Positions 41,555-63,254 of a stretch of DNA of 64,000 nucleotides are shown here, piece by piece. A program made the translations under genes and the position numbers. Under the pieces are notes generated by a model that searched no databases, was not told the origin of the DNA, and saw only the letters and a list, made by a program, of their open reading frames with translations. Source of the stretch: a virus; IMG/VR virus record IMGVR_UViG_3300043409_002246, positions 1-64,000 of that record, one strand, 5' to 3'. Each line of letters begins with the position of its first letter. The stretch's first letter is position 1.

Positions 41555-42441
41555 TTACGATTACCGCCGCACCGATTCCGACTGACTTCCGGGGCACTCC
41601 GCAGGAGTTGCTGAACGCATTTCTTGACCGGGTGGAGATTACCTCCGACACCGTTGGCTTTGTCGTCACGGACGAGCAGCCGACCGCGAACGACGGCGTC
41701 TGGCTGAAGAACGGAACGCAAATTTGGGTATGGGACGAGGACACTTCTACCTACGTCCCGCTCGACGTTTCCGCGTCAACCTCCGACGAGATTCATGTCG
41801 GCGCCACGGCGCCAGACGAAGCGGAGTTTCAAATCTGGCTGAAGGTCGTTTCGTCGGCGGTTGTTGGCCTGTTCTACTACATGGGGACCGAGCTCGGCTG
41901 GGTTGCCCAAGAAGTCGGCGTGGCCGACGGCTCGATCACGACGGCCAAGCTCGGCGACCTGAGCGTTACCACGAACAAGATCGCAAACGGCGCGGTCACG
42001 GCGGTCAAGCTCGGCGACAACATCCCTATGAGCAAGTGGGAAATCGGCGATCCACGCGCTTTCCTGCGGATGAACGCCGCCGGCACTGCCGCCGATTGGG
42101 AGACTCCTTTTTCGGTCACTACGGAACAAGTGGTCGCGATCAACTCGATTGTCGAAGTGGCTCACCTACTCGATGCAACTCCACATAGCGTGGAGTGCGT
42201 CATGGTGCTGAAGGAAGCTGACGGAAGCTCGTGGGAAGTGGGCGACGAAGTGAAGATTGAAATGTTCCGTTGGGATTCTGGCGGAGCCGATGACGAGATC
42301 ACGTATTCGTCTTTCAAGAACGAAACTACCGTGGGCTGTGTGTTTCGCGGAAACATCTTTGTTTGGGATAGGGCGACCTCGGGGAATTATCAGATTGACC
42401 CCCTGAACTGGCGGGTCAAGTTTTACATAACGAGCAGTTGA
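41551..42441 (+). CDS. Tail fibre/spike-like protein (paralogue B)
   Basis: N-terminal ~60% closely similar to paralogue A; C-domain divergent. Confidence 0.65.
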   Translation: MITITAAPIPTDFRGTPQELLNAFLDRVEITSDTVGFVVTDEQPTANDGVWLKNGTQIWVWDEDTSTYVPLDVSASTSDEIHVGATAPDEAEFQIWLKVVSSAVVGLFYYMGTELGWVAQEVGVADGSITTAKLGDLSVTTNKIANGAVTAVKLGDNIPMSKWEIGDPRAFLRMNAAGTAADWETPFSVTTEQVVAINSIVEVAHLLDATPHSVECVMVLKEADGSSWEVGDEVKIEMFRWDSGGADDEITYSSFKNETTVGCVFRGNIFVWDRATSGNYQIDPLNWRVKFYITSS

Positions 42442-42970: not shown

Positions 42971-43909
42971 ATGTCAATTATCGCCATCGCAGTCGTCGGA
43001 ACAGTCGCCGCCGTCGGAGCCGCCGCCGCTAAAGGAGCCGCCGCCAACAAAGCCGCCAAGGCCATGCAGAAGGGTTGGAACGCGACCGAGCCGCTTGATC
43101 TTGACGAGATGCAGGAAGTCGGCAAAGCCGCCGACCTGCAAAAGTATCAGGACCAGTTCGCGGCCCAGCGCAAATACGATCCAGTGCTCGGGGCGATGCG
43201 CTCACAGGGCTCGGAGAATTTTCTGGCGCAACTGCAATACGACAAAACCGGGCAGGGCGTCGGCGACAAGGCGACGCGCGAAGTGTCGAAACTGATTGAA
43301 GATGCGAAGGCCGGGCAGCAGAGCGCGATTGATACTTTGATGACGAAGGCGCAGGAAGAACTCGACGCGGGTGCAACGTTGCCCCCGGAGTTTCAAGCGG
43401 AACTCGTCAAGGCCGGCCTCGAAGGCGCCGGCACGGGCGGTCTAGGAATTGAAGGTCGCGGAGCATCTGGAACCGGAGTCCGCACCTTGCTTGGCTCGGC
43501 TGGCTTGCAGTTGAAACAGCAGCGCGAGAAGAATGCCATCGGCATGTTCGGCGCGGCGGACGACATCCGCGCGGGACGCATGAAGGCGCTCGCGGGGGTA
43601 GCGGAGCTTGACAATAACGTCCGAAGCGGCAAGTTCGCCCGGGCCGGCGGGGCAATCGGCGTCGGCAACGCGGCCATGCCGTCGGTTGGTATGAGCGGCG
43701 CGACCGCGATGGCGTTGACGAGTGCAAACAACGATTTTGAGAACACGCGCAAGCTCGGCAAGGCCGGGGTTGAAGCGGCCCGGCTGAAAGCGCAAGGCGA
43801 CATGTGGGCGAGCATCATCGGCAGCGTGGGCTCCGGCATGACCGGCGCGGTGGGCGGGAGCTACGGCGGGATTATGACCAAGGCCGCTTACGACCGCCAA
43901 GGGGCATAA
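42971..43909 (+). CDS. Probable DNA ejection / internal virion protein
   Basis: G/A-rich hydrophobic termini typical of pilot proteins; position. Confidence 0.6.
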   Translation: MSIIAIAVVGTVAAVGAAAAKGAAANKAAKAMQKGWNATEPLDLDEMQEVGKAADLQKYQDQFAAQRKYDPVLGAMRSQGSENFLAQLQYDKTGQGVGDKATREVSKLIEDAKAGQQSAIDTLMTKAQEELDAGATLPPEFQAELVKAGLEGAGTGGLGIEGRGASGTGVRTLLGSAGLQLKQQREKNAIGMFGAADDIRAGRMKALAGVAELDNNVRSGKFARAGGAIGVGNAAMPSVGMSGATAMALTSANNDFENTRKLGKAGVEAARLKAQGDMWASIIGSVGSGMTGAVGGSYGGIMTKAAYDRQGA

Positions 43910-43924
43910 CAGACACCAGAATTT

Positions 43925-45280
43925 ATGAGCGAATCACTACCGTCCAGTCGGAGCGAGGTCCAGTTCAACGTCCCGGTCAACCGGCTGCAACAGCCGGACA
44001 TGCCGGTGCTGACGGGCATGGCTGACGCTTTTCAACGCGGCGCGCTCGACGTGCAGACTCTTTTCAAGTCGGCCTCGATGGGGAGCGACCTCAAACGGCA
44101 GAAGGCGGAAGACGAAGTGCGCGTGACGAAAGCCAAGAGCGAGCTTGAGTCTGCCCCGGCTGAACAGGCAGTCCGGATTGCTAAACTAGAGTCGGAGCTT
44201 GCCGACATAAAGAACAAGGAGTTGAATCGGCCCAAAGTAGAGGCTTTCAAGTCGGCGGAGGCGGACATCGCGATTGCAAACCAGACGGCTAGAAAGCTGG
44301 CGGCGGCTAATTTCAGTAACGGCGTAGAGCCAGATGCCCTGACGTTAGTTCAAGCTTGGGAGTCAAACTTCAAGAACGAGGCCATCCCCTACCGCGCCGA
44401 GCAGGGTCAGCGGGAATTTCTCGACTACAATAAGATGCGGGAACGTCTTGCACCGATTCAAAAACGCGACGCCGAACAGGCGGCGCAGGGGCCCGCGTCC
44501 GCGCTGAATACCGCCAGCAACATCAAACAAGCTGCGGAAAGCGGGCGACCTCTATATCACGCGGACGGGAAGGCAAAGACTACCTTTGAATTGGACTCTG
44601 ACCGGGTCAAGGATTTCGCGGCTCTGCGGGATACCGGGACGCCCTTGACGGAGCGCCAAAAGATAGACCAGAGAGATGTTCTGGATCGCAACCTTCAGCT
44701 TCTCGCGGACATGGAGCAGGCTTCTACCATCATCGCAAAGGATACCGCGACCGGCCCGTTCATAGGGACCCTACCCGGTCAGGCGGCAGCATGGGCGCTG
44801 GCCGCGACGCGGATTGACCCGACCATTCGGGACGACCAAAAGAAATTGACGATGTTCGCCAACTGGAAGGTTGCGGAAGGGACCCAGCTTTTGAAGGGCG
44901 CCCTGTCTGAGAAGGAATTGAAGTTCATTGAGCAGACGGTCCCCGAGCTTTCTTCCAGCAAATTAGTGTGGGAACAATATCTGGCTCCGAGGATCAAGAT
45001 GCTCAAAGCCGCCAATGACCGAATGGTGCGGGGCGGTAAAGTCCCGGCGCCGGGCGAGGCAGATTTGACTGACGGTTTGGAGAGCCTACCGATGGCTACT
45101 CAACCTTCCTCCAATGTGGGAGTTCCCTCTTCCCGCCCGCCTTCGCCGATTCCAGACGGACAGCCGGGGTCAACCAAAGAGAACCCGGCTAAGGCTGCTT
45201 CCGCAGATGAATACGCGAAGCTCGCGCACGGGGCGTGGTATTGGAACGCCAAGCACAAAATGTCACTCCAAAAACCTTGA
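43925..45280 (+). CDS. Probable internal virion protein
   Basis: Helical; LKGALSEKELKF motif; C-terminal EYAKLAHGAWY element. Confidence 0.55.
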   Translation: MSESLPSSRSEVQFNVPVNRLQQPDMPVLTGMADAFQRGALDVQTLFKSASMGSDLKRQKAEDEVRVTKAKSELESAPAEQAVRIAKLESELADIKNKELNRPKVEAFKSAEADIAIANQTARKLAAANFSNGVEPDALTLVQAWESNFKNEAIPYRAEQGQREFLDYNKMRERLAPIQKRDAEQAAQGPASALNTASNIKQAAESGRPLYHADGKAKTTFELDSDRVKDFAALRDTGTPLTERQKIDQRDVLDRNLQLLADMEQASTIIAKDTATGPFIGTLPGQAAAWALAATRIDPTIRDDQKKLTMFANWKVAEGTQLLKGALSEKELKFIEQTVPELSSSKLVWEQYLAPRIKMLKAANDRMVRGGKVPAPGEADLTDGLESLPMATQPSSNVGVPSSRPPSPIPDGQPGSTKENPAKAASADEYAKLAHGAWYWNAKHKMSLQKP

Positions 45281-45309
45281 TTGACAAACGGGGTCAAACG
45301 GGGCATCTT
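45281..45309 (+). promoter_or_regulatory. Promoter TTGACA-N17-CATCTT, near-leaderless
   Basis: Spacer holds a tandem CAAACGGGG; ATG at 45319. Confidence 0.75.
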
Positions 45310-45318
45310 AATTCAGAC

Positions 45319-48300
45319 ATGTCTTCACTGATTGATACTAATCGGATCGCCGATCCGGCACCTGAACCTCTGTCCATGAACATCCCCGACCCGGGACTGG
45401 CGCCGCTTCCGGCTCCGCCTGCCGGCGGATTCCAGATGTTGCCCCTGCCGGTTGCGCCCGTGGCGCCGGTTGCGCCCGCCGAGCCGTGGAGTCCGCCTGA
45501 CGAAATTTCGGGACTTCCCGGGACGGAGTCGTGGAGTCCGCCTGACGAAATCTCGGGGATAGAGTCCGCCGAGCAGTGGAGCCCTCCCGAGGCAGATGTT
45601 GCTCTCGAAAAGATTCGTTCTTATTCCCCGGAGAAACTCGCGGAGATGGCAGAGCCGGAGCGACAGGCACTTTGGGCGGAGGTTCGGGATTTCGCGCCGC
45701 CGGACGATCTGAAGAAACTGGCAGACGCTTCTGCGAAACACCGCGCCATCGGGCTAACCCCCAAGATCGTCGCTGAAGGCGTCGCCGGGACGCTCGGCAC
45801 TTTGTGGAAAATGGGAACCAGTCTGGTGCAGGCCGGTTGGTCGGCTACCCACCTTCCCGGTCCTTCCGACATCAAGAAGATTCTCAAAGCTACCTCGAAA
45901 GATGAAGCCTTGAAAATCTTGGCCGACGTTAGCACCCGCTCTGACGCGGAACTCGTGTCGGGGTTGTCCACTGCCAGCGCCAACGCGGTTATCCTCGCCC
46001 GGGATGCGATTCGCGAGATTGTGAATTTTGAGCCCCCGGTAGGTAAGGCCCTCGGCATCCCCGGGACCCGGGACATCCTGAGCGCCGTGACGGGAACCGA
46101 CCTTACAAAGCGCCTCGGAGCCGACGTTTCCGACCCTGAGAATTTTCTCGAACCGGAGGACAACGTAAAGCGTTTTCTGAACGATTTCGACGCCGCTGAC
46201 GCGGTGAATAAAACCGCCGAGGGCCAGTCGGTGTTCTCCGAGTGGCTCGGGATGGATGCCGCAGAACTGAAGAAGCAGGACATCGAGATCAACCCCGAGG
46301 CCATCGAAGGCTTCGGAGTCGCGCTCGACATTACGAATTTGGTCCCGGCCTTGGGAGCGTTAAAGTCGCTCAAGGTCGTAAAGCTGGCGGGGGTTGGAAA
46401 CGCCGCCGCGCGGTCGGCGCTGGTTGACGAAGCCGGAAAAGTCTATCTCACCACGGCGAAAGAAGGAACCGCGCTTTTCATGGCGCAAAGGCTCGCGCAA
46501 AAGGCAGCAGCGGGAGTTGCCGCTGTCGGTGACGCGGCTGCTAAGTTCGGTAAGCGAGCCTTCCAAAGCAAGACCGTCGGGGCAGGCGCCTTTGGAGCGT
46601 TAGCGGCAGGTCATGCCGCCACGGCGGGTAAAGCGGCGGCGCTTGCCGGCGGAACCATGTTGTCGGGCAAGGCCGTCGCGGGCATCGCCCGGATGGCCGG
46701 CAGTCAAACCGCCATAAATTTTGCAACCGACGTGGGAGTCTCCGCGCTCAAGGGAGCCAAAGGCGGGTTACTGTTCGGCTTGCCGCTGGCGGCGCTGACG
46801 GATGACCCGGAGAAGCAAGTTGCAATGGCGACTATCGCGCCGGCAATCGGCGGAGTAATCGGCGGAGCGATGGGCGGAGCTACCGGCATCAAACGCGCGG
46901 CGCTGGCCAAGACGGAGGCCATCAACCGGACGATTCTCAAGAACGCGGAGCAACTCGGAGACGTTGATCCGGCACAGCCGCACGATCTCGCGGTCGAAGG
47001 CCATGAAGCGGTCGAGGCCATGCACCGGGAGAATCAGTCCAAGATCGCGGACGACAACAGTCGCAACCGGGTGAACATCGTCCGGCGGCTTGCTGAAAAA
47101 TTGGGACGGCCAATGTATGTCGTCACTCCCGATCAGTTTGCCGCTCTTGGAGTCCGGGCAGCTTCGGGCGTGGCTGACCATCCAATCAACGGCAAGCCGG
47201 CCATGTTGGTCAAGCTCAATCCCGACGGAAGTCTCCCCGCGCTCGGTCACGAATTGGCTCACCCGGTCCTCGATTCTTTTAAGGCGGAGAATGCCCCCGA
47301 AGGCATGGCCCCGGAGATGGTTGCTCTGCGCCAACGGCTGCACGATGAATTGATGGCGTCCTTCAGGAAGCGCAAGGTTGGCGCGATGGAGGCGGACATG
47401 AACTCGACGCTTGTCAAGGCCGTCAAGGCGGCGCAAGTTGCCCTCGCTGAGAGGCCCGAGAGCGCGCGGCTTCAAATCAAGTTGGCCGAGGCGCAGGCCG
47501 CTCTCCAAAAGGAAGGCATCAACCTCGGTCAAGGTGCCGAAGAACTGGCTGCTGAAGCTCTCACCGTCGTAATGGAAGGCCGGGGGCTCACCGGCGACGT
47601 GAAGTTCACTCCGGAAAACGCCAGCGCGGCTAACCGTCTATTTTTGTCGTTGCTCGAAAGTCTCGGGTTGGTCAACGATCAGGTGCTCGCGCGCTTGCCC
47701 GAGGGAATGGATCGCAAGTCGAACGTATCGCCGGGCCAAGAGGTCGAGCACACGCAACGCTCGATTCGCGCCGCGCAGGCGCTTTGGGATAATTTTCACG
47801 ACAACCCGCTAATCAAAGAGGCGCTGGCCGACGCGGGCGGAACCCCCGAAGCACCCGCAGCGCCCGACGCTCCGGTCGCTCCCGTGGTGCCGGACAATGC
47901 GGCAGCAATCGCCGCGCGGCTCGCCGAACTGAAGAAGTCCGGCACGCACACCCTCGCGCAGAAGCTTCTCGACAAATTCAATCGCGGTGAAGTGCTGACG
48001 CCGGACGAGCAAGCCAACTTTGACACGTTTTTCGGCAAGCTCAATCTCGGCAAGCCGGCTCAACCGGTGATCGCTCCCGTGGCTCCCCAGCCGATTCCTC
48101 CGGTAATCCGGGGAGTGAAGCCTACCCCTCCGTTTAACCCGGGCAGCAAAGAACTCAACGGGCTCAACATGCCCCTCGGGACCGATGTTCCCGTAAATCC
48201 CGTGACACCCGGGGCGCCTCCGGTAATTGAAGCGCCCAGCCGGCGGGGGCAGACCTCCGCAGATTTTAACAACCCCGCGCGGGACGCGGCAGACGCGGCG

Positions 48301-51300
48301 ACGGCGGCTCAGGCGGAACGAGTGGCGAAGTCGAACCTGCCGAAGGAGGCCAAATCTGCGTTTGCGAAAATCGCGGCCTTGCCCGGCGCGCTCTGGAAGA
48401 TTCTCCACGAAGGCGCCAAGAATGAAGAGGGCGCCGCCGGCATGTTGGATCAACGTCGCCGACAGGTAATCCAAGCGGCTCGCGACAACCCGGCTCTCAG
48501 GGACGAAGCGAACAAGTATGGATGGATGAAGAAGTCCTCGGAAGTAACCTCCGGGGGCGAAGAGATTTTAGTCGGCTTCAACGGTGAGGCTCTGCTGGCG
48601 AACGCATTGCTCGCGGTGAAAGAAATCGGGTTCAAAAAAGTTCCCTACCTCAAAGACAAAGTAGTCGGCGGGGAGTTGACCGGAGAGGGGCTGAGAGCCA
48701 TCCGCGAGGACCAGCTAAAATATCTTCAGAATCAAAATGCGGGATTCGGCGGCGACGGGTCAAAGCTGGTCCGTGGAAAAGAGACGGCGCAGCATGTCCC
48801 GGCGGAGGACCCGAACTACACGCCGCAGCAACTTTCTTCGCCGGACGCACTCGACTTTATCAATCTGACGATGGGGGAGAACACCCCGATTTCCGCGAAG
48901 GTTTACACCAAGGGAACCCCGGTGCCGATTCTCGCGGCGGACTTCGCCAAAGCGAACAAGAAAGTCGGAACTCCCGCGCTCGGCAAAGACGGCCAGCCGT
49001 TGATTTACGCGAAGGAGCCTTTTGCCGGCCAGCCGATTGAGGGATTCAACAAGCTGCGCGCCGACCTCGAAGCGCAGGGAGTTAATTTCCGGGACCTGAA
49101 GCCCGCGAGCGAGCGTCTGAACGTCAAGAATCTACGGGGAGCGGAAGTGATGGAGAACGTGTCCGGGATGAAACCGAACGTGTCCGTCACTACGGCAGCG
49201 GGGTTCATGGCAGAGAAGCGCGCGATCCAGATCGAAGGCCCTGATGGGAAAATGTATGATGCGACCTTCGACGGCTGGCAGGATTTCGGCAAGCTGAAGG
49301 GCTGGGGCCAGCAGGCTCAAATTACCACGCTTGAGAAGATGCCCGGGTTCAGCGACGGCACCACGACCTACGAAGCCGCGCTCCGTGAGGCCGGCTACAA
49401 GGTTCAAGATTTCGGCAAGCCGCAGACGCTCAAAGAAGACCCGGCGGCGCACGTCCCCGGGGAAGTCAGCAAGCGCCCGGACGACACCGCGCTGAAACTT
49501 CCGACTCCTGCGGACGCGCCGGTGAAGCTCGCCGGGGATGACATCGGACTCACCCCGGCTCGGTTCATGGCGGAGAAAGTCTCCGGCAGCGAGCATACCG
49601 AACAGAGTCCATCCTACCCGGATGCCATCGAGAAAGCGAAAGCGCGCGGCGGCAATGCGTGGGTGCGGCAGACCGATTCCCCGACGAACGCCGACCGCGT
49701 ATTGCTCGTGCAGTTCGCGCCGGAGTTGATGTATCCGAACGGCCCGGACCCGATCTCGACTCCGTATTACGAGAAGCTTTACTCCGGGGTCCGCAAGGGC
49801 TTCGACAAGGCTCCGACGTTTTGGGAAATCCCGCAATGGGCCGCAGTCGCGAAGAACAATCTGGCCAAGTCTGATTTTTACGCGGTTCACAACGTCGCGG
49901 AAGCGAAGGCATTTTTGGAAAAAGCGGACTACGGTCGCGTGGCCTTCTCCGTGATGGACGTGAGCAAGGCGCTGACCGAAGAACTCGTGCCGCATATCAA
50001 GGGCGAGGTTGACCTCGGCGGCTACACCGACCGCACCGCCGCCGCCGCACTCAGCCCGAAGTCGCACATTTGGAACTCGATGAATGAGTTCGTGGAAGCG
50101 CAGGGCGTGAAATACCAGAAGGGCTTCGACTACGCGCACTTTCGGGGCACGCCGATCATCCCGCGCATGGAACTGTCGGCAGGTTGCCGGCACAAATGCA
50201 CGTTCTGCACTATTGACCGCAAGGTGACGAACAGCCCCGTCTCTGAAGTCAACGCACAGGTGGACTCCTTCTCCGACCTGAACGCGAAGCTGGTGTATTT
50301 GAACGACAAAACCTTCGGCCAGTCCCCGAACGTCGCGGAGATGCCGCGTATCTTCAAACAGATGAAGGAAGCGAACCCCGAGTTCGAGGGCTTCGTGATC
50401 CAGACCACGGCGGCGCAGATGAAGCTGTTCAAGCCCGAGTTCCTGAAGGAAGCCGGCATCAAATACGTGGAGCTTGGCGTTGAATCTTACAACGACTCCA
50501 TTCTGAAGCCGCTGCGGAAGCCGGCGAATGAAAAGCTGATTGACGAAGCCGTCACCAAGCTGCGCGAGACGGGAGTGAACTTCATCCCGAACATCGTCAT
50601 CGGCTTCCCGGAAGAGACTGCCGCGACCTACGCGCACACGATGGATTTCCTCCGCAAGAATGAGGACATCATCAGCCACGTCAACGTGTATAACCTCGCG
50701 GTTTACGAGGGCACCGAGATTTCCGGCAAGATCAAGACGAAGACTGCCGGCGACGTGGACGAGAACACGGCGGCGAAATCCTTCCACAAGGACCCGGCGC
50801 TGCACGCCAAGTTTGCAAAAGACGTTTACGACTTCGCCACGGAGCGCCTCGGCAAGCCGGCAGCGTTCATGGCTGAGAAGGTAGCCCGGGAGCGAACTGC
50901 GGAAGCTCACCCCTCTCTCAAAGACGAGACGGGGATGCCGAAGATGTTTTATCACGGGTCGTTCAAATCGAAAGAGTTGATCGCTTCCGGAGGGTGGGAT
51001 ATTGACAAAACCAAATCTGGCGGTCTATTCGGAAAGGGGTTTTACTTTACCGACAACCCCGGGGTAGCCGGCGGAGTCCCTTGGAGAAATTCTTTGCGGA
51101 AGCTCGTTGGGAAATCCCCCGAGGGCTACGCGATGCAACCTACCTCGACGAATTCGTTCTTTGAGCAGAAGGTAAACCCGGCGGAAGGAACCCCCGGGGT
51201 GTTTCCGGCGTATCTGGATTTGCGGAACCCGTTCATCGCCGACAAAACTTATACTGGACCCGAGGCGCTGGCTTTAATCGAGAAGTTGCCTCCACTGCCC

Positions 51301-54300
51301 GAGGGCTATGGGACCGCCCGTAAGTTTTTCGAGCGGACTCTAGCTGACGCGCCCCGACCTCTTCGGGGGACTGATCTGTTCAAAGCGGTTCAGGAATACG
51401 CCATCAAGTCGCAGAAGGCCGACGAATTTCTAGGATACCAAGCGGACCCCTCGGGAGCTTCCCTGAAGGGGTTGGAGATGGCGCCGGATCGAGTAGTTCG
51501 CTGGATGCAGGAAGCGGGCTACGATGGAGTTACCTACCTAGGCGGAGTCACCCGAAAAGCGACGTTCACTTCACTCGGAGAACACGCTGTCGCCGTGGCC
51601 TTCGCGCCGGAGCAAATCATCTCCCCCTACGAGAAGCCCGGGTCCGAGCCCGGCAGGTTCATGGCTGAGAAGGGCCGGCCTCTCACCGAGGCGGGCGAGG
51701 CACTCGAACGCAAAGGTTTATTTTTCACCGGCACGCGCGATCCGAAGGACGGTCTGACGGTTCTCCGATACAGCAACAGTTCCGGGGAGCCCGTCGCGGA
51801 CATTTCCTTCCGGGCGGCGGACGGCGCCAAGTCGGCGACGGTCAACATGGTGTTCACCGACGAGACATATCGCCGGCTCGGCCTCGCGGAAGCACTCACG
51901 CGCGAAATGGGCGCACGCTTGCAGGAGGCCGGAGTCACCGACTTAAAGGGCACCGCAGTTTCTAACAAGGAAGGCGAGTTTCCCGCCATCGGCCTGCGGA
52001 AGAAAGTTTTCGGCAACGTGGAAATCCGCCCCATCAAGGGCTTGGAGGGCACCGACAAAACCGTCGGGATGCAGGACATCCGCTCGAAAGTTGACCCGAA
52101 CCAGAAGTTCATGGCGGAGAAAACTCAAGCCACGAAGGAGATTGAGTCCTCCGGTTTGGAGTTTTCGGAGAAGGGCAATACCCTGAAATTCAAGGATGGG
52201 AAAAAGACCGTGGCATACCTTCGCTACTCTGTGAACGATGGAGAGGCGTATCTGGACGAAACCAAAACCGACGCCGGCTACCGAAGGCGGGGGTTGGCGG
52301 AAGCACTTTATCGGGAGTTGGGCTCCCGGTTGCAGAAGTCTGGCATTACGGTCCTCGACGGGGACGTGATTTCGGAGGCGCCTCTTCACTTGAGGAAGAA
52401 AGTATTCGGTAACGTCCAAGAGTCGGGAAAAGAATTGACGTTGTCTGTCCCGGAACCTCTACTTAATCAGAGGGACGCGCTGCTGGAAGAGAAACGCGGG
52501 CTGGAAAAAGTTCTGTTAGACGTGGAGAACGAGATCACCCGAGCGTGGAACGCGGGAGAGCGGAAGACGAGCGCGAAGAATGAACTTGCACTGAAACAAG
52601 CCGAAACAAACCTAGCGGCGGTTCGCCAGCGTGTCGAGGACTTCAACCGGGACAACCCCGGAGTTTTGGGGTTCCAGAAAAGTCCCCCGGGTCACGACGC
52701 TACTAAGAAATTTGACGATCACGTATGGATGCAAGTGTCCTCCAAAGTTGACCCGAACCAAAAGTTCATGGCGGAGAAAACGTGGATCACCCGCGAAGGT
52801 GAAGTCGTGGACGCCAAGGGAGATCACGCACGCGACGCCGCCGAACGCCACGGCGTGAAGATCACGAACGACACGCGCGACAAGTCGGTCAACGCGGCGC
52901 TCGACAAGGGCGAGGTTCAGGCGGAGTTGATGGACAACACGCTCTACCTTTTTGCCGACGCTGCATCGTTCACCGAACTCAACCGCCGGCAGCGCGCGGC
53001 CATCGAGAAAGCAGCCCTCGAAGGCGGTCACGCAGTCGTTTACAACGGCAAGCACATTGAAGACTTCGGGCCGGCCATGAAGTTCATGGCGGACAAGGCT
53101 ACCAACTCCCGAGGGTTGCCTCCGGCAGTCGAAAAGGACGTTAGGCGGGCGGCTAGAATTCTGCGAGCTTCCGAACAGCGCCTCCGGGACCTTCCCGACG
53201 GAGCTTCCCTCGAACAACGGGACGCGGCAGTGGGAAGCCTGAGCAAGGCCGAGCAACTTCTGAATGATGTCAATCTCAACTACGATATTCTGGATTTTCC
53301 GGCGTTGGAGTGGGTGCGAAAATCACTTCGAGAACATGCCTCCGACTTGACCGACCTGCTAAACACCGAGCGCCGACCGGCGATAACCGAGGATGCGGCT
53401 TTAATCGGGCGACTCGCCGACGGCATGGATGATCTCCTAAAGCCCGCCTCCAAGTCCTTCATGGCGGACAAGTCTCCGACCGTGTGGATCACCCCGGACG
53501 GGAAGAAGGAGCCGCTGGGGGGAGTCCTGCACGAACACTACCTCGCGCAGAACTCCGATAAGCTCAACAAGAAGTTCGGCACCAAGTTCTCTGGCGAATA
53601 CGATGAAGCGCAACGGCTGAAAGCTTTGAACGCCGGATTCGTCCGGGTCCGATCCTCCGGGCAGGGCGACATGACGGTCGAACTGAACGAAAGATTTTGG
53701 GGCAAGCGCAAAGCCCAGCTTCTCGCCCATGCCCTCGACAACGTGGCCGAGATGAACTCGTTGACCGTGGACCTTCTCACCGACAAGGGCAAGCACGTCG
53801 CCGGAAACTACGCTGACGTGTATGTGTCCAAGGACCCGAGCCAAGCGATTCGGGACGTGTTTTCCGAGATGCTCCTGCCGACCGGGAAGCCGACGGTCAA
53901 GGAACCGACGGCGATCCAGCGCGCCCGCGCGATGCGCGAGCCGCAATACATGGCGGACAAGGTCAAAGCGCCCGTAGTCGAAGATCAACTCGAACTCGGA
54001 AAGCCGGCGCCGCCGATTGACCGCTACAACCGGGAGTTCGTGAAGTCGCTCACGCTCGAACAGAAGAAAGAACATTTCCCCGAGGCGGTCGTAACCGCGC
54101 GCGACGCGGACGGAACGCCGCCGTTAATCGGCTCCGACATTGTCGGCTCGCCGATGGTGAAGAAATATGGCGAGGCGGCTGCGATCAAGAAAGTCGGCGA
54201 CAAGCTCGCGGCCCGTTACGAAGAATTCAAGAACGATCCGGCAGTCGAACTCGGGAGAACGTGGTATTCCCGTTTTACCGGCCCGCTGAAAAAGCACTTC

Positions 54301-55224
54301 GGCAAAGACGCTTCGCTGTTCGCGGAATTGCTGGCCGCGACCTCCCCGCAGACGCAGCCGAAGCAGAACTTCGAGACGGCGTATCACGCTTTCGAGCTTT
54401 ACAAGGCTGGTTGGTTCGACGATCTGGTTGCCGGGTTTATCGAAGGGCTCGACAAGATTGAGTCCGGCGTGCTATATCAAGATTACGTGGACGCGGTGCC
54501 GGCGAGCAAGCGGCCCGCGAAGATTTCCGACGAGACTCTTCTCGGCTGGTGGATTGACAGCCAGAATTTGCGCCCGACGAAAGCGCCCCGGCTCAAAGGC
54601 AAAAGTCTGAGCATCGAAGACGAAGTGCTTTTCAACGCCAATAGCGTCGCGGTGCTGAAGGTCGCGGCCCGGAAGTGGATGACGGAGAACACGGGACCGA
54701 AGACGAGCCAGTTCGTCCGCAACCTGCTTGGACTTGACCACGGCGCCACGATTGACCTTTGGGCCGACCGTTCGGTTCGCGAGGCGGCTTACTCCGACTT
54801 CGAGAAACGCTGGCGGATTCTTCCGGAGAACACCAAGGGCGTGTCCGACGTGGACTTCGACTTTTCTCAGGCCGCATTCAAGCACGGCGCGGACAAACTT
54901 GGTATGAAACCAAGTGAGTTGCAAGGCGCGCTCTGGTTCTTGGAAAAACGCCGTTGGGCGGAGAAAGGCTGGTCGCAACTCAATCTCGGCGATTACCTGC
55001 CGCACTTGCAGGAACTCGTGGATGCCGGCCCGCTCTCCGAGGCGCTAAAGAACGTCCCCATCTCAAGGGCTAAAGCCTTGGCCGACGTGGTCATCGCGCG
55101 CAAGCAACTGGTGAAGGCGAAGGCGGAAGTCGCCAAGATCGAGCACGCCGAAGATTTGGCCATCCGCCGGGCGAAGTCGCGGCAGGAAACCTTTGCCCTT
55201 GACATCAAACCCAAAGCCAAGTAA
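45319..55224 (+). CDS. Giant polyvalent internal virion protein (~3301 aa): zincin, radical SAM, ART-like, 2x GNAT and HhH-like modules separated by [FY]MA[ED]K
   Basis: HELAH...EELAAE; CRHKCTFC; FYHGS...GKGFYFT; YRR.GLAEAL twice; ATSPQ...GPKT...TIDLW; last gene of the ejection cluster. Confidence 0.85.
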   Translation: MSSLIDTNRIADPAPEPLSMNIPDPGLAPLPAPPAGGFQMLPLPVAPVAPVAPAEPWSPPDEISGLPGTESWSPPDEISGIESAEQWSPPEADVALEKIRSYSPEKLAEMAEPERQALWAEVRDFAPPDDLKKLADASAKHRAIGLTPKIVAEGVAGTLGTLWKMGTSLVQAGWSATHLPGPSDIKKILKATSKDEALKILADVSTRSDAELVSGLSTASANAVILARDAIREIVNFEPPVGKALGIPGTRDILSAVTGTDLTKRLGADVSDPENFLEPEDNVKRFLNDFDAADAVNKTAEGQSVFSEWLGMDAAELKKQDIEINPEAIEGFGVALDITNLVPALGALKSLKVVKLAGVGNAAARSALVDEAGKVYLTTAKEGTALFMAQRLAQKAAAGVAAVGDAAAKFGKRAFQSKTVGAGAFGALAAGHAATAGKAAALAGGTMLSGKAVAGIARMAGSQTAINFATDVGVSALKGAKGGLLFGLPLAALTDDPEKQVAMATIAPAIGGVIGGAMGGATGIKRAALAKTEAINRTILKNAEQLGDVDPAQPHDLAVEGHEAVEAMHRENQSKIADDNSRNRVNIVRRLAEKLGRPMYVVTPDQFAALGVRAASGVADHPINGKPAMLVKLNPDGSLPALGHELAHPVLDSFKAENAPEGMAPEMVALRQRLHDELMASFRKRKVGAMEADMNSTLVKAVKAAQVALAERPESARLQIKLAEAQAALQKEGINLGQGAEELAAEALTVVMEGRGLTGDVKFTPENASAANRLFLSLLESLGLVNDQVLARLPEGMDRKSNVSPGQEVEHTQRSIRAAQALWDNFHDNPLIKEALADAGGTPEAPAAPDAPVAPVVPDNAAAIAARLAELKKSGTHTLAQKLLDKFNRGEVLTPDEQANFDTFFGKLNLGKPAQPVIAPVAPQPIPPVIRGVKPTPPFNPGSKELNGLNMPLGTDVPVNPVTPGAPPVIEAPSRRGQTSADFNNPARDAADAATAAQAERVAKSNLPKEAKSAFAKIAALPGALWKILHEGAKNEEGAAGMLDQRRRQVIQAARDNPALRDEANKYGWMKKSSEVTSGGEEILVGFNGEALLANALLAVKEIGFKKVPYLKDKVVGGELTGEGLRAIREDQLKYLQNQNAGFGGDGSKLVRGKETAQHVPAEDPNYTPQQLSSPDALDFINLTMGENTPISAKVYTKGTPVPILAADFAKANKKVGTPALGKDGQPLIYAKEPFAGQPIEGFNKLRADLEAQGVNFRDLKPASERLNVKNLRGAEVMENVSGMKPNVSVTTAAGFMAEKRAIQIEGPDGKMYDATFDGWQDFGKLKGWGQQAQITTLEKMPGFSDGTTTYEAALREAGYKVQDFGKPQTLKEDPAAHVPGEVSKRPDDTALKLPTPADAPVKLAGDDIGLTPARFMAEKVSGSEHTEQSPSYPDAIEKAKARGGNAWVRQTDSPTNADRVLLVQFAPELMYPNGPDPISTPYYEKLYSGVRKGFDKAPTFWEIPQWAAVAKNNLAKSDFYAVHNVAEAKAFLEKADYGRVAFSVMDVSKALTEELVPHIKGEVDLGGYTDRTAAAALSPKSHIWNSMNEFVEAQGVKYQKGFDYAHFRGTPIIPRMELSAGCRHKCTFCTIDRKVTNSPVSEVNAQVDSFSDLNAKLVYLNDKTFGQSPNVAEMPRIFKQMKEANPEFEGFVIQTTAAQMKLFKPEFLKEAGIKYVELGVESYNDSILKPLRKPANEKLIDEAVTKLRETGVNFIPNIVIGFPEETAATYAHTMDFLRKNEDIISHVNVYNLAVYEGTEISGKIKTKTAGDVDENTAAKSFHKDPALHAKFAKDVYDFATERLGKPAAFMAEKVARERTAEAHPSLKDETGMPKMFYHGSFKSKELIASGGWDIDKTKSGGLFGKGFYFTDNPGVAGGVPWRNSLRKLVGKSPEGYAMQPTSTNSFFEQKVNPAEGTPGVFPAYLDLRNPFIADKTYTGPEALALIEKLPPLPEGYGTARKFFERTLADAPRPLRGTDLFKAVQEYAIKSQKADEFLGYQADPSGASLKGLEMAPDRVVRWMQEAGYDGVTYLGGVTRKATFTSLGEHAVAVAFAPEQIISPYEKPGSEPGRFMAEKGRPLTEAGEALERKGLFFTGTRDPKDGLTVLRYSNSSGEPVADISFRAADGAKSATVNMVFTDETYRRLGLAEALTREMGARLQEAGVTDLKGTAVSNKEGEFPAIGLRKKVFGNVEIRPIKGLEGTDKTVGMQDIRSKVDPNQKFMAEKTQATKEIESSGLEFSEKGNTLKFKDGKKTVAYLRYSVNDGEAYLDETKTDAGYRRRGLAEALYRELGSRLQKSGITVLDGDVISEAPLHLRKKVFGNVQESGKELTLSVPEPLLNQRDALLEEKRGLEKVLLDVENEITRAWNAGERKTSAKNELALKQAETNLAAVRQRVEDFNRDNPGVLGFQKSPPGHDATKKFDDHVWMQVSSKVDPNQKFMAEKTWITREGEVVDAKGDHARDAAERHGVKITNDTRDKSVNAALDKGEVQAELMDNTLYLFADAASFTELNRRQRAAIEKAALEGGHAVVYNGKHIEDFGPAMKFMADKATNSRGLPPAVEKDVRRAARILRASEQRLRDLPDGASLEQRDAAVGSLSKAEQLLNDVNLNYDILDFPALEWVRKSLREHASDLTDLLNTERRPAITEDAALIGRLADGMDDLLKPASKSFMADKSPTVWITPDGKKEPLGGVLHEHYLAQNSDKLNKKFGTKFSGEYDEAQRLKALNAGFVRVRSSGQGDMTVELNERFWGKRKAQLLAHALDNVAEMNSLTVDLLTDKGKHVAGNYADVYVSKDPSQAIRDVFSEMLLPTGKPTVKEPTAIQRARAMREPQYMADKVKAPVVEDQLELGKPAPPIDRYNREFVKSLTLEQKKEHFPEAVVTARDADGTPPLIGSDIVGSPMVKKYGEAAAIKKVGDKLAARYEEFKNDPAVELGRTWYSRFTGPLKKHFGKDASLFAELLAATSPQTQPKQNFETAYHAFELYKAGWFDDLVAGFIEGLDKIESGVLYQDYVDAVPASKRPAKISDETLLGWWIDSQNLRPTKAPRLKGKSLSIEDEVLFNANSVAVLKVAARKWMTENTGPKTSQFVRNLLGLDHGATIDLWADRSVREAAYSDFEKRWRILPENTKGVSDVDFDFSQAAFKHGADKLGMKPSELQGALWFLEKRRWAEKGWSQLNLGDYLPHLQELVDAGPLSEALKNVPISRAKALADVVIARKQLVKAKAEVAKIEHAEDLAIRRAKSRQETFALDIKPKAK
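52087..52124 (+). repeat. 38-bp direct repeat (37/38 identical to 52744-52781)
   Basis: aaagttgacccgaacca(g/a)aagttcatggcggagaaaac. Confidence 0.9.
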
Positions 55225-56324: not shown

Positions 56325-57215
56325 TCAGAAATTCATCTTCGCGGCGGCGGAGCGCAGGTGCTCGTTGCTCAGGTGCCCGTAAACCTTCGACACCAGAATG
56401 CCGCCGTCGGAGTGGCCGAGCATCGCGGCCACGGTCATAAAGTCAATGCCGGCCATGACGGCGCGGCTGGCGAACGCGTGGCGCAGGTCGTGTAAACACA
56501 TCGTCCCCAACCCAGCCGCGCGGCTGACCGCGCTGAAGACTGCCGAGGGGCTGATCCAGTGGCCGGCGCTGGTCCGGTCGGGCGAGGGGAACAGCCACTC
56601 ATTCTCGTCGCGCCGCGAGGCATACATGGCTTTCAGGTGATCGAAAAGTGACTTGTTCATCACCACGACAACGTCCTTGTCGAACTTGGTGTGAAACACG
56701 ATGGTTCGCTTGCCGAAGTCAACATCCGACCAGCGGGCGGAGATTCCGGCCTGCCGCCGGCAACCGCTATAAGCGACCAGCCGCAAGTAGTCCGCCAGCA
56801 TCTTCCCGTTGCGGAACTCCGGTCGCTCCTTCCAATCCAAGCGGGTAGCCACGGTGCAGAGCCGTTCGAGCGCGTCGTCCGGTATCAACTCCCGGCGGGG
56901 CGTCTTGTGCTTTAGCGGCTTCCATTCCGCCGTCACCAAGGGCGCCTTGGAAAAGAGGCCCGTTTCCAAACCGAACTTTAGCACGTTGTGCAACGAGAGA
57001 ATGTCGAGGTTGACGGTGCGATTGCACACGTCCTCCCCCCGGTTCATCGCGAACTCGTTCAGGTCGGAGCGGGTGATCTGGTCCGCCTCGCGGTCGCCGT
57101 AGGCGGTGAGCCAGCGGTCGAGCGTGTAGCGTTCTTTCTGCACCGTCAGCGGCGACTTGGATCGCAGCCGGGTGACGGAGTCCAAGTATTTTTCAGACAG
57201 TTCTCGTAACTTCAT
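56325..57215 (-). CDS. Tyrosine recombinase/integrase (short, ~296 aa)
   Basis: YSGCR, TK, HDLRH, LGH, VYGH catalytic residues; ATGA-coupled start. Confidence 0.9.
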   Translation of the reverse strand: MKLRELSEKYLDSVTRLRSKSPLTVQKERYTLDRWLTAYGDREADQITRSDLNEFAMNRGEDVCNRTVNLDILSLHNVLKFGLETGLFSKAPLVTAEWKPLKHKTPRRELIPDDALERLCTVATRLDWKERPEFRNGKMLADYLRLVAYSGCRRQAGISARWSDVDFGKRTIVFHTKFDKDVVVVMNKSLFDHLKAMYASRRDENEWLFPSPDRTSAGHWISPSAVFSAVSRAAGLGTMCLHDLRHAFASRAVMAGIDFMTVAAMLGHSDGGILVSKVYGHLSNEHLRSAAAKMNF

Positions 57216-57415
57216 GCGCGTGCGAGGGTAGTGGTCTGGCCCCAGCGCGGGAAAAACCATCCCCGGACGGCCCATTCGTGGCGGGTGAAGGTTTTGCCGG
57301 TGGGACGCCGGTCGGTGATTACGCCCGTCTTGGGACAGACGCGGTAACTTTCCTCCGGGATGGAGCGTTGACGCGGAGCCGGCCTTGCCGGTCCTTTGCA
57401 GTGTTCAAGTTTCAT
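57212..57415 (-). CDS. Small basic protein co-transcribed with the recombinase (leaderless)
   Basis: ATG 6 nt after the -10 box; its stop overlaps the recombinase ATG. Confidence 0.55.
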   Translation of the reverse strand: MKLEHCKGPARPAPRQRSIPEESYRVCPKTGVITDRRPTGKTFTRHEWAVRGWFFPRWGQTTTLARA

Positions 57416-60350: not shown

Positions 60351-61049
60351 TCAGAGCAAATCGTGTTTCTGTGCCGCGAGCGCGCCGCGAAGTTTCCGCA
60401 GCGCCCGCATCCGCAGGTTGCCGACGGCCTGCCGCTTCACTTTCATCGCCTTCGCCGTCTCGGTCTGCGTTTTGCCGTCCAGTTCATGCCGGATGATCCG
60501 GCGTTCTGCCGTCGTCAGCATCCGCGCGGCGTGTAAAATGGACTCTCGTCTCACTGAGTTAAGTTGCCTGTTTTCATAGCCTTCGTCAACCTCTAATTTC
60601 ATGTCCGCGTAATCCCGGTTCCACGTCGAACCGGTCAGGTGGGCGCGGCCCGTAACGACTGCGCCTTCCCCGTATTCGTCGTGATACGAAAATGCACTTT
60701 TTCCGAGGCGCTGGCCCTTCTTCAACGACTCGAAGACCTGCCCCCGGATGAACTTCCGCAGATACCCCGAGAAGCGCGGCCCGCGCGCCGGGTTGAAGCG
60801 CCGCGTCTTCAATGCCTGCATCAGTCCGAAGTTGCCGGCGCTGATGGCGTCGTCTTCGTCCAAGGCTCCCTTCGCGCAGGCGATGGCCGTCTTGGCGGTG
60901 AACTTCAGGTAGTGCCGTATGATCCGATTGCGCGCCCGCAGCGAGTTGCTGGTGCGGGAGTGGTAAACTTTGAACAGCGCCGCCTCGTCGTCACGGGAAA
61001 GCGGAGTGAAGGAGAGGTCGGTGGCTTCGGAGTAGTATGGCATAAACAT
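60351..61049 (-). CDS. Sigma-70 family RNA polymerase sigma factor
   Basis: Region 2 DDAISAGNFGLMQA...FNP.RG.RFSGY...IRG; region 4 TQTETAKAMKVKRQAV...RALRKLR. Confidence 0.85.
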   Translation of the reverse strand: MFMPYYSEATDLSFTPLSRDDEAALFKVYHSRTSNSLRARNRIIRHYLKFTAKTAIACAKGALDEDDAISAGNFGLMQALKTRRFNPARGPRFSGYLRKFIRGQVFESLKKGQRLGKSAFSYHDEYGEGAVVTGRAHLTGSTWNRDYADMKLEVDEGYENRQLNSVRRESILHAARMLTTAERRIIRHELDGKTQTETAKAMKVKRQAVGNLRMRALRKLRGALAAQKHDLL

Positions 61050-61058
61050 TGATTCAGA

Positions 61059-63254
61059 TTACACGGAGTCGGTGGTGGTGTCAACAATTACTTTGTTCAA
61101 GTCCCGGTGAATTTTCCAGTAGCGGCCCCGTCCTCTGTTCGGCGCAATGCCGCGCTCAATGCCCGGCGTCCCCTTGTGCATCAGGGTCGCCATCGCGCGG
61201 CCTACGGCGTCGCCGGTCTTCGCCTGCATCGCGCCCCGGCGGTTCGGGTCCATCGCAATCGCGATTTGAAGCTCGGTCGCGGAACCATGCCAGAACTCCG
61301 CTGTCGGGTTGTCGCGGAACCACTCCGCGTGCCAGATGGTCATAACCTCACGGAAGCCGGCGGACGAACTCGATTGCTCCGCGATCTCGAACAGGCTTTC
61401 GTCGGCGAAAGGCTTGATGCCGAACCTGCCGCCGGAAAGAAGGTGCGCGGGGATTTCAGTGTCAAGCAGCCAGCGACAGTAGAACGGAAGCTCGCGCTCG
61501 ATGATCTCAGACAAGTTACCCGGGAACTCCCAGCACTTCTTTCCGACTGTCCGCAGGATGATCGTCTTGTCGAGGTTCGACAGGTCGAGGTCGGGCAGCA
61601 TCCGCGCGCTCTCTTCGTCGGCGTTCATCGTCACCACGGCGCGGCCCAGCCAGACGGCCTTGCCGGCGGAGCGAAACTTCTCGTTGAAGTAGAACTCCCG
61701 GCTGGCGGCGATCTGTTTCAGGGCGGCGGAGAATTTTCGGCGCCCGGCGATGTCGGTTATGGCGTTGCTATCGTCGAGGACCCACAGCCCGGCGTTGAAC
61801 AGTTCGGAGTTGAAGGACGTTTCGCCCATGAGCCACGGCGCCGCGTTGGCGGAGCCGCCGAAGACTTTGGCCATGACGGCAGTCACGAGAAAAGTTTTGC
61901 CAATCTCCACCGGCCCGGCGATGAACATTACCTGCCCGCTCTTCGGCGCCTGAATGAACGCGTTCTTGTAGGCCCACTTCATCCACGCTTGGAAAACGTC
62001 GCCTTGCTCCGGCGTGTAAATGTGCTCCAAGAAGAACGACAGCCACGGGAAATTTCCGTTCGGACCCCAAATCCCCGGGTCGGCGGAGGGCGCCATGACC
62101 CGCATCGTTGACGTGTTCAGCGTGCGCCGGCCTTCGATGATGTTGAACCCGGTGGGGAAGAAGATCGCGGGGACGGCCACGTCAACCCGGTTCGTGTTGC
62201 AGATGAAATCGAGCGTGCTGTTCAGGGATGAAATGGGCATGTCCTTGGAGGTCTTCGCCGAGACTCCCCGGTTGACGATCAGGTGCCGGGAGATTGTCCC
62301 CTCCGCTTCCGGTCGCCAAGCGCCATCGGTAAACCGACGGAAATAGTTTTTGCCGTCGTAGTATATGTCAGCCGCCGCCGCGCCGGCAGACTCCGCCTGA
62401 TGCTTCTTGACGAAGTCCATCCCGAGCAGGTCAGCCCACGAGAAAAAGGTCTTGTGCGCGTTCTCGGAAAAGGTCCGCAGACCGTTCTCGTAAACCGTCG
62501 CCGACATTGGCGACTTCGAGAGCGGGACCCAAAAGGTCGGGCCGTGAGCGCCCACCACGAACTCCCCCGGCCACTCTGCGAAGGTCGGATATTTTTCCGT
62601 CAGCGCCGGGATGACTGACTCAATCGGGATTGACGCGCCGAACTCGCGCTGTGAAAACTCGAACTTGGCCATCGCCGCCGCCAGCCAGCCCTCCGTTACG
62701 TTGGCCGGGATGAACTCCGATTTCAGTATCCGCCAGTCGCATCCGTTCGTCCAATAGCGTTCCGGGGCCTCCCACGCGGGTTGGTCGAAGCCGATGCCGC
62801 CGAGCGCCGGGTCGAAGCCGAACTCGGTGAACGTTTTCAAAAAGTGCGTCGCGAAGGAGAATGACGGCAGGCGGATGGCTTTCTCGAAGACCCACACAAA
62901 GCGCCAGTTGCCGGACAGGGTGCGCTCGATCCAGTTTGGCGGCGTGCTGAGTTGACTGGCTGATTCCAGCATGGCAGGCTCCTTCGTCGCGTGATCGAAG
63001 TCGGCCACGAGGCCGTGCAGGAACAGTGGCGGGTTGCCTTCGCCTTCGGCCTTCGGCTTGGTGATGCGGAGGTTTACGTTGACCCCCTCGAACATGGAAT
63101 AAACGTGGTGGTTCGTGCTCGGTCGGTTGATCCAAAGGTGTCGCTCCTTTTTGTCGAAGCGAACCTCTTCAGGAATGGGCGTGGCCGGCTTGAAATCCCA
63201 AGGCGCGATACCGGTTTTGATGGCGTGGTCGGAGAGTCGTTCGAGATAGATCAT
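61059..63254 (-). CDS. Primase-helicase (AEP-like N-domain plus SF3-type P-loop NTPase)
   Basis: ADFD and RTLSGN.R primase-like motifs; Walker A GPVEIGKT; WVLDD; EKF. Confidence 0.75.
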   Translation of the reverse strand: MIYLERLSDHAIKTGIAPWDFKPATPIPEEVRFDKKERHLWINRPSTNHHVYSMFEGVNVNLRITKPKAEGEGNPPLFLHGLVADFDHATKEPAMLESASQLSTPPNWIERTLSGNWRFVWVFEKAIRLPSFSFATHFLKTFTEFGFDPALGGIGFDQPAWEAPERYWTNGCDWRILKSEFIPANVTEGWLAAAMAKFEFSQREFGASIPIESVIPALTEKYPTFAEWPGEFVVGAHGPTFWVPLSKSPMSATVYENGLRTFSENAHKTFFSWADLLGMDFVKKHQAESAGAAAADIYYDGKNYFRRFTDGAWRPEAEGTISRHLIVNRGVSAKTSKDMPISSLNSTLDFICNTNRVDVAVPAIFFPTGFNIIEGRRTLNTSTMRVMAPSADPGIWGPNGNFPWLSFFLEHIYTPEQGDVFQAWMKWAYKNAFIQAPKSGQVMFIAGPVEIGKTFLVTAVMAKVFGGSANAAPWLMGETSFNSELFNAGLWVLDDSNAITDIAGRRKFSAALKQIAASREFYFNEKFRSAGKAVWLGRAVVTMNADEESARMLPDLDLSNLDKTIILRTVGKKCWEFPGNLSEIIERELPFYCRWLLDTEIPAHLLSGGRFGIKPFADESLFEIAEQSSSSAGFREVMTIWHAEWFRDNPTAEFWHGSATELQIAIAMDPNRRGAMQAKTGDAVGRAMATLMHKGTPGIERGIAPNRGRGRYWKIHRDLNKVIVDTTTDSV

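Follow-up and report, generated by a model that had tools for sequence, protein, structure and literature searches.

How could a single phage protein put many unrelated enzymes to use? Phages and plasmids commonly encode polyvalent proteins, and the deployment of many unrelated enzymes from one chain is so far a matter of speculation. The question is raised by a giant gene in the virus record IMGVR_UViG_3300043409_002246 (75,414 bp; G+C 60 %; 100 % complete according to CheckV), of which positions 1 to 64,000 form the window analysed here. The longest frame, 45235-55224 on the plus strand, has a GTG start, 9,990 nt and 3329 aa; the database copy of the gene (P0001/P0002) begins at an ATG at 45319 and encodes 3301 aa. 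Residue numbers refer throughout to the 3329-aa frame from the GTG at 45235. With Radical_SAM, ART-PolyVal, two GNAT and DUF7178 matches in Pfam plus an HExxH domain, the product is a multi-domain polyvalent protein. A first-pass annotation, made from the sequence alone, had described its C-terminal part as modules separated by a repeated pentapeptide, [FY]-M-A-[ED]-K, and had read the pentapeptide as a cleavage signal. The architecture is itself that of a polyvalent protein; from sequence comparison, the new element appears to be a grammar, in which a fixed chassis is followed by cassettes punctuated by a lineage-tuned F-x-P/A delimiter.

The pentapeptide was found nine times in the giant open reading frame (ORF), at the places first described and always in frame: six copies are FMAEK, two FMADK and one YMADK, starting at aa 1324, 1444, 1878, 2142, 2292, 2511, 2617, 2742 and 2905 (nucleotide positions in Table 1). 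The composition of the protein predicts 0.005 copies (Poisson P ~6e-27), and six-frame translation of the window and of the full 75,414-bp record gave no further [FY]MA[ED][KR]. All nine copies lie outside every Pfam envelope (Radical_SAM, aa 1646-1806; ART-PolyVal, 1897-2130; GNAT, 2184-2245 and 2314-2373; DUF7178, 3145-3236), as expected from the annotation, which had placed none inside a recognisable domain. All nine cassette boundaries, that between chassis and cargo included, bear a copy, and the module sizes proposed earlier were recovered (120, 434, 264, 150, 219, 106, 125, 163 and 425 aa). In an AlphaFold2 (AF2) model of aa 1310-2509, motif 2 borders the radical SAM fold on its N-terminal side, while motif 3 lies in a short helix five residues past the last radical SAM helix (predicted local distance difference test score, pLDDT, ~75) and motif 5 in low-confidence sequence. 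The earlier expectation that each segment would fold completely and independently held for the radical SAM unit, which was modelled with pLDDT above 90; models of the ART and GNAT modules were poor.

The radical SAM cassette could be followed across viruses. BLAST of the inter-motif segments showed that in eight relatives the limits of the radical SAM block are 0-7 aa from the upstream motif and 1-12 aa from the downstream one, and the neighbouring module varies (ART here, GNAT in P0003). An alignment-based scan of viral contigs detected the module in 73 viral loci, where a single-protein scan had returned none. About 50 of these lie inside giant ORFs with several chassis and ~12 are stand-alone proteins of 385-440 aa. 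The stand-alone proteins stop 0-4 residues past the alignment to aa 1872-1874, that is, 3-5 residues before the FMAEK at aa 1878. Judged from these alignments, the motif delimits true, exchangeable modules.

Parts of the cargo region are shared by 18 database proteins of 1,900-4,200 aa. The exact pentapeptide [FY]MA[ED]K is absent from these 18 homologues. De novo word counts revealed that each of them has its own over-represented tripeptide of the F-x-P type: FQP occurs in 6-9 copies against ~0.3 expected and FMP in 4-7 copies, while the words are FSP, FQP and MQP in P0007 and AMP and FMP in P0006. When 1.8 billion representatives were searched exhaustively by HMMER with aa 100-1299 of the chassis, 73 chassis relatives emerged, most of them 2,000-2,800 aa long. 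F-x-P or F-x-A is the most enriched of all 8,000 tripeptides in most of them, and the words used at family junctions are FLP, FMP, FQP, FSP or FMA. Pooling 55 proteins gave 365 sites with the consensus [Q/G/K/R]-F-[L/M/Q]-[P/A]-[K/A/S]-x-[E/K] and polar, Pro/Gly-rich flanks. The median spacing is 148 aa (interquartile range 105-254) and the first site lies at ~aa 1,140; the chassis holds very few. A lineage-specific linker thus recurs at the junctions of homologous giants while their module content varies, as the first-pass annotation had anticipated. At 50 % identity, the family described by these comparisons has 70 or more representatives, every one from an uncultured virus, and combines a fixed chassis with a motif-punctuated cassette array. 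In some linkers of P0007, P0033 and P0039, paired motifs (F-L-P...F-L-P or M-Q-P...M-Q-P) stand 9-12 aa apart and are redundant sites in one junction.

The motif is retuned between lineages. The radical SAM cassette shares 60-71 % identity with its counterparts in P0003-P0006, P0010 and P0011, against only 26-40 % over short stretches for the chassis. In one such comparison, of FMA with FQP, the cassette is 71 % identical and the chassis only about 29 %. Even so, the two junctions beside the cassette read F-M-A here versus F-Q-P or F-M-P there in an otherwise alignable context; for example, G-L-T-P-A-R-FMA-E-K-V aligns with G-L-K-P-I-R-FQP-E-K-V, in which only motif positions 2-3 are changed. 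Agreement at position 2 within a protein was 0.633, compared to a permuted mean of 0.321 and maximum of 0.367 (2,000 permutations; input, all F-[LMQS]-[PA] sites past aa 1000 without pre-selection). Motif classes follow clades on a tree built from the zincin region. The window protein clusters with P0024 (F-M-A-[E/A/N]-R, seven copies), P0023 (FQA) and P0027 (FVA), and the change from Pro to Ala at position 3 is therefore clade-wide. The conserved core is F-x-(P/A); the Met and the E/D-K tail are particular to this lineage. This weakens the proposal that a cut at F|M releases enzymes starting M-A-E/D-K, since relatives have F-L-P, F-Q-P or F-S-P.

The same comparison bears on an alternative raised by the annotation, that translation starts internally at the ATG within each F-M-A-E/D-K and yields separate M-A-E-K proteins. 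Met followed by Ala is present in all nine motifs here and in the seven of the sister P0024. At homologous junctions of relatives, however, the Met is replaced by Q, S or L, which rules out internal starts for the family as a whole, and the Met is flanked by the conserved F and P/A. None of the nine ATGs is preceded by a Shine-Dalgarno sequence or other start context, a point that is not decisive because a Shine-Dalgarno sequence is missing from most genuine genes of the virus too. Internal starts are thus extremely unlikely in this protein.

At the DNA level, the nine copies have only ~15 nt in common and differ synonymously (Ala GCA, GCG or GCT; Lys AAG or AAA). The conservation is therefore at the level of the peptide. 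A single longer repeat, of 42 nt and 95 % identity (52083-52124 and 52740-52781), flanks the GNAT duplication, in which a cassette was duplicated along with its linker (modules 4 and 5). Cassettes that switch chassis and duplicate with their linkers would suit a motif with no reader at the protein level, left by or used in cassette shuffling as a microhomology joint. A DNA repeat or recombination joint is ruled out by the short shared stretch and its synonymous variation, save for the 42-nt GNAT repeat, and the motif DNA differs between lineages that have swapped the radical SAM cassette (FMA versus FQP). The other reader-free form is punctuation of co-translational pausing or folding. Motifs containing Pro can slow translation. 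Here, however, Ala replaces Pro throughout the lineage and would remove a Pro-dependent pause, and the invariant Phe would be left unexplained. We consider it highly improbable that the motif lacks a protein-level reader.

Is the motif a property of the chassis or of the cargo? F-x-P/A enrichment reached p<1e-4 in 43 of the 73 zincin-chassis giants, and in most of the others the top F-x-P word is FLP or FMP. Where the same radical SAM cargo sits on other chassis, enrichment was seen in only 4 of 47 giant proteins. Two of these four are N-terminally truncated fragments of the family; the third, P0008, carries HELFH, a divergent form, which leaves P0018 as a genuine exception. The counts show, within the sequences compared, that the motif goes with the chassis and is not brought by the cargo, an association that is confounded by common descent. 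P0018 (3143 aa) carries four I-R-F-M-P motifs together with ART-PolyVal and DUF7178 and has neither an HExxH nor chassis similarity; by its sequence, the motif exists outside the zincin chassis too.

Further F-x-P/A-like sequences were noted outside the array. G-D-Y-L-P-H-L (54988-55008, plus strand; aa 3252-3258) lies within the DUF7178 module ~75 aa from the C-terminus, where the sisters P0023, P0024 and P0027 have F-M-P; it is a possible tenth site or simply domain sequence. F-x-P/A occurs 15-70 aa from the C-terminus in 15 of 64 family members, and a short terminal peptide could be released or bound there. K-F-T-P-E at 47602-47616, just past the E-x-x-A helix of the zincin-like domain, resembles the family motif, is unconserved in aligned relatives and is probably due to chance.

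The chassis carries a candidate protease. A family profile delineates a zincin-like domain with an H-E-L-A-H motif whose H, E and H are invariant in one alignment of relatives (A2). An E-x-x-A lies in a predicted helix ~95 aa past HELAH, with E770 and A773 invariant; E770 is the candidate third metal ligand by sequence, and the predicted ligand arrangement is that of a gluzincin. HExxH is present in about 55 of 70 relatives. The domain gave weak domain-wide matches to M34 zincins and to phage polyvalent or internal proteins, and weak structural matches of its model include a MuF-C protein of phi191, a phage related to phi24B; against solved structures, neither Foldseek nor profile searches returned a significant match. 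A predicted complex of the zincin alignment, Zn and a 40-aa junction peptide scored 0.01, which speaks neither for nor against binding. The only other HExxH within a long ORF of the virus is in a Stealth-like protein. A language-model atlas search with the pre-cargo region of the chassis yielded no usable match.

On this evidence, the chances seem about evenly balanced that the F-x-P/A motif is a lineage-specific protease recognition site and the chain a polyprotein, with the in-cis zincin as the leading candidate protease. The chassis (~1,100-1,300 aa, comprising a hydrophobic segment, the zincin-like domain and the conserved pre-cargo region) heads a variable cassette array, and the chain would be cut during or after delivery, in a MARTX-like manner, into the chassis and up to nine separate enzymes. 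We infer cleavage, the acting protease, the scissile bond, the timing and the packaging into the virion. The S1' pocket of a zincin usually selects a large hydrophobic residue. According to the title of PDB 1pwq, lethal-factor inhibitors imitate Tyr-Pro-Met on the primed side. For these two reasons cleavage ahead of Phe is no less plausible than F|M, and if the in-cis zincin is the reader, Phe would probably occupy S1' with the scissile bond before it. The full scenario, in which one ejection protein carries a built-in zincin that cuts at lineage-specific F-x-P/A sites and frees up to nine enzymes in the bacterium (acetyltransferases, an ADP-ribosyltransferase and a radical SAM enzyme among them), is put forward tentatively and is less likely than not. 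In this scenario the specificity of the protease and its sites would co-evolve, and cassettes captured from other phages would be retuned to the code of the recipient.

Several observations are caveats to processing by the in-cis zincin. The motifs are retained in an H-D-x-x-H clade, which uses FLP, in P0011 (HExxE) and P0092 (HExxxH), and in P0018, which has no HExxH. The two inner HExxH residues showed no covariation with motif class; the HExxH context differs between two separate FLP clades, and motif position 2 changes among L, M and Q in near relatives that share an HExxH context. N4 vRNAP (virion RNA polymerase) and other polyvalent proteins bearing a metallopeptidase (MPTase) are delivered uncut (PMC5512222). 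The H-D-x-x-H clade comprises P0047, P0051, P0052, P0055, P0058, P0062, P0063, P0067, P0070, P0075, P0080 and P0083, and nested within it P0069 and P0074 are back at H-E-A-G-H. To judge from sequence, either Asp serves as the catalytic base in this clade or its domain is non-catalytic.

These observations bear on two further explanations. In the main rival, F-x-P/A is an uncleaved docking motif: the linker peptides would attach at many points to a partner peculiar to the lineage, for example a chaperone, the portal or core, the inside of the capsid, or a conserved neighbour such as the 312-aa product of 42971-43909, and the chain would be packaged or threaded intact. Docking would explain the position in linkers, the conservation at the peptide level, the lineage retuning and the tandem motifs 9-12 aa apart. 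The uncut delivery of N4 vRNAP, the retention of motifs in the H-D-x-x-H clade and in P0018, and the gene for the 312-aa protein just upstream in all nine syntenic loci also fit it. Docking does not, however, require a motif at essentially every cassette boundary, including that of chassis and cargo, or its location at natural protein termini; it has no identified partner, and it leaves a metal-site domain in the same chain without a role. We regard docking as rather unlikely, though a serious competitor.

Alternatively, the motif may be a cleavage site that is read in trans by a host protease or an unrecognised phage protease, with the zincin employed otherwise, for example in cell-wall or host-protein cleavage at entry. 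Motif retention without a canonical HExxH and the L/M/Q switching at constant HExxH context would then be expected. There is a precedent in 80alpha, where host Prp cuts F|A in unrelated virion proteins (PMC5744158), and a protease could hide among the proteins of this virus, most of which have no recognisable family. A six-frame Pfam search of the virus gave no match to Prp (PF04327, E<=1), S78, S77, ClpP or S49, an absence that counts for little in so divergent a virus. In addition, the motif is found in no other protein of the virus, unlike the sites of general head-maturation proteases, and quick lineage-specific retuning is easier to reconcile with a reader inherited along with the sites than with a host enzyme that is conserved. 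A protease acting in trans is accordingly improbable. Cleavage, with the in-cis zincin as candidate protease, remains our leading proposal; features of the giant gene and its surroundings are collected in Table 1.

Table 1. Features of the giant gene, its product and the downstream minus-strand genes (positions in the window)
Feature	Position	Strand	Remarks
Giant polyvalent-protein gene	45319..55224	+	ATG start, 3301 aa (3329 aa from GTG 45235)
N-terminal chassis	45235..49203	+	aa 1-1323; motif-free; kept in ~70 relatives; stops at junction motif 1
Three tandem 15-aa repeats, each with W-S-P-P-(D/E)	45476..45590	+	Near N-terminus
Hydrophobic Gly-zipper-like segment	46816..46875	+	aa 528-547; sole strongly hydrophobic stretch of the chassis
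Zincin-like domain	47011..47889	+	aa 593-885; family profile; AF2 pLDDT 64.7
H-E-L-A-H metal/catalytic motif	47248..47262	+	aa 672-676
E-E-L-A-A-E helix	47539..47556	+	aa 769-774
Junction motif 1, FMAEK	49204..49218	+	Chassis / module 1; AF2 coil, pLDDT below 50
Cargo module 1	49204..49563	+	120 aa; no assigned function; common to P0007, P0009, P0017
Junction motif 2, FMAEK	49564..49578	+	Module 1 / radical SAM; positional homologue of FQP/FMP/FSP in relatives
Cargo module 2, radical SAM enzyme	49564..50865	+	434 aa; CxxxCxxC at 50185-50208
Junction motif 3, FMAEK	50866..50880	+	Radical SAM / ART; stand-alone radical SAM ends 3-5 aa upstream
Cargo module 3, ART-PolyVal-like	50866..51657	+	264 aa; Pfam E 1.5e-6
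Junction motif 4, FMAEK	51658..51672	+	ART / GNAT-1; AF2 coil, pLDDT below 50
Cargo module 4, GNAT acetyltransferase-like	51658..52107	+	150 aa; Pfam
Junction motif 5, FMAEK	52108..52122	+	GNAT-1 / GNAT-2
Cargo module 5, GNAT and helical extension	52108..52764	+	219 aa; Pfam; duplicate of module 4
Junction motif 6, FMAEK	52765..52779	+	GNAT-2 / module 6
Cargo module 6	52765..53082	+	106 aa; no assigned function; common to P0009
Junction motif 7, FMADK	53083..53097	+	Module 6 / module 7
Cargo module 7	53083..53457	+	125 aa; no homologue found
Junction motif 8, FMADK	53458..53472	+	Module 7 / module 8
Cargo module 8	53458..53946	+	163 aa; no assigned function; common to six relatives
Junction motif 9, YMADK	53947..53961	+	Module 8 / DUF7178 module
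Cargo module 9, C-terminal, with DUF7178	53947..55221	+	425 aa; commonest terminal module of the family
Tyrosine integrase gene	56325-57275	-	
Sigma-70-family factor gene	60351-61049	-	
DUF5906 protein gene	61059-63254	-	

The cargo modules were assigned with differing strength. The radical SAM module scored 52 bits against Pfam PF04055 (cut-off 29.5), with C1651, C1655 and C1658 invariant, and gave weak RimO/MiaB-type matches in the PDB. The ART label of module 3 has an E-value of 1.5e-6 and a score of 29.5 bits, just under the Pfam cut-off of 31.2, which the homologues in P0010 (151 bits) and P0006 (56.7 bits) pass. The last module, initially called HhH-like (helix-hairpin-helix), matches DUF7178 and has no recognisable HhH. 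PDB sequence searches with modules 6-9 returned no match, and no similarity was detectable between modules 6 and 8. Among cultured phages, no useful relatives of the chassis, DUF7178 or the radical SAM module were found. Near the N-terminus of the chassis, the W-S-P-P repeats may be a further array of short linear motifs.

The giant gene ends a co-directional late block in all nine syntenic viral loci compared. Upstream of it, Pfam and PHROGs recognised only tail-fibre-like, collagen and fn3 proteins; downstream, on the opposite strand, they recognised an integrase, a sigma factor and a DUF5906 primase-like protein, and the majority of the proteins of this virus match no recognisable family. 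The tyrosine integrase lies directly downstream, the sigma-70-family factor has regions 2 and 4, and the DUF5906 protein is primase/helicase-like. From this gene context and the precedent of phi24B gp47, the giant product is a putative virion or ejection protein. The gene for the 312-aa protein (42971-43909) is kept just upstream in the nine loci, and its product may be a partner of the giant protein. A language model offered the P22 DNA-transfer protein gp7 as a lead for it, and Pfam PF25688 did not confirm this. A further upstream product of 451 aa (43925-45280) adjoins the giant gene. Nearby, the paralogous genes 40616-41554 (312 aa) and 41485-42441 (318 aa) overlap by ~70 nt and have a weak tail-fibre PHROG match; both match the same single gene in eight related loci, and the pair is therefore a local duplication. 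Shine-Dalgarno sequences are missing before the starts of most genes of the virus (e.g. 23029, 25955, 29590 and 33632), which hints at a host with Shine-Dalgarno-independent initiation.

The literature that we searched holds no description of this chassis, cassette and F-x-P/A family of giant phage polyvalent proteins, which is previously undescribed. A delimiter shared by ~70 divergent giants, with defined sites and a candidate protease, makes the autoprocessing idea directly testable. If the proposal is true, it would represent the first polyprotein strategy with defined sites in a dsDNA phage; we know of no established dsDNA phage polyprotein of such a kind. It would also provide a parsing rule for 'dark' giant phage ORFs, in which each inter-motif segment is one effector, and a natural modular scaffold for protein delivery with programmable cut sites. 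The radical SAM enzyme of module 2 is a common phage cargo, present in about 60 further viral loci.

In RNA-virus polyproteins, such as those with picornavirus 3C sites, short protease sites are repeated at every junction and the protease acts in cis. Those viruses have eukaryotic hosts and their polyproteins hold replication and capsid proteins, unlike the phage enzyme cassettes described here. Among phage proteins, polyvalent proteins combine 2-15 unrelated conflict-type domains per chain and in phages are encoded beside late or virion genes (PMC5512222). The present protein resembles them in being a giant chain with ART-PolyVal, acetyltransferases and a zincin-like MPTase, encoded beside virion genes. 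Autoproteolytic release of domains by the MPTase was proposed for polyvalent proteins by Iyer et al. 2017 (PMC5512222), and the F-x-P/A sites together with an in-cis zincin give that idea a concrete form. In contrast to the family described here, with its fixed chassis, motif-delimited cassettes and radical SAM cargo, that account describes no recurrent junction or cleavage motif, no linker and no radical SAM. Proteomics of podovirus particles identified phi24B gp47, a 2811-aa polyvalent protein that includes a metallopeptidase domain and for which an ejection role was proposed (bioRxiv 10.64898/2026.04.10.717836). It differs in its domains (LPD1/5/38, MuF-C) and has no detectable sequence similarity to the giant protein; neither a junction motif nor multi-site processing is reported for it.

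Other phage processing systems act in trans. The prohead proteases T4 gp21, phiKZ gp175 and SPN3US gp245 trim DNA-packaged proteins at a short consensus, of which one protein may have several copies (PMC10052503). Their substrates are numerous head proteins, from which they remove mainly N-terminal propeptides, whereas the motif here is in one protein, between enzyme modules, of a virus with no S77/S78 match. A T4/phiKZ-type x-x-E| site is ruled out by the lack of conservation of Glu/Asp at motif position 4 in relatives. Prp is a cysteine protease of Firmicutes hosts that cuts F|A on the 80alpha capsid and scaffold proteins and on L27 (PMC5744158). Its motif, a Phe beside a small residue, is superficially like F-M-A-E-K and occurs as one N-terminal site per protein; this 60 % G+C virus has no PF04327 match, and most relatives have Pro rather than Ala after F-x. 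In MARTX, an in-cis cysteine protease cuts at Leu (P1) in unstructured segments between effectors (PMC2900308). The two systems share a giant delivery chassis, an exchangeable effector array and an in-cis protease, which is a candidate here. MARTX proteins are secreted bacterial toxins with eukaryotic targets and an InsP6 (inositol hexakisphosphate)-activated cysteine protease (PMC2900308), whereas here the source is a phage, the presumed target is bacterial, the candidate protease is a zincin, and the putative processing would take place at an F-x-P/A motif.

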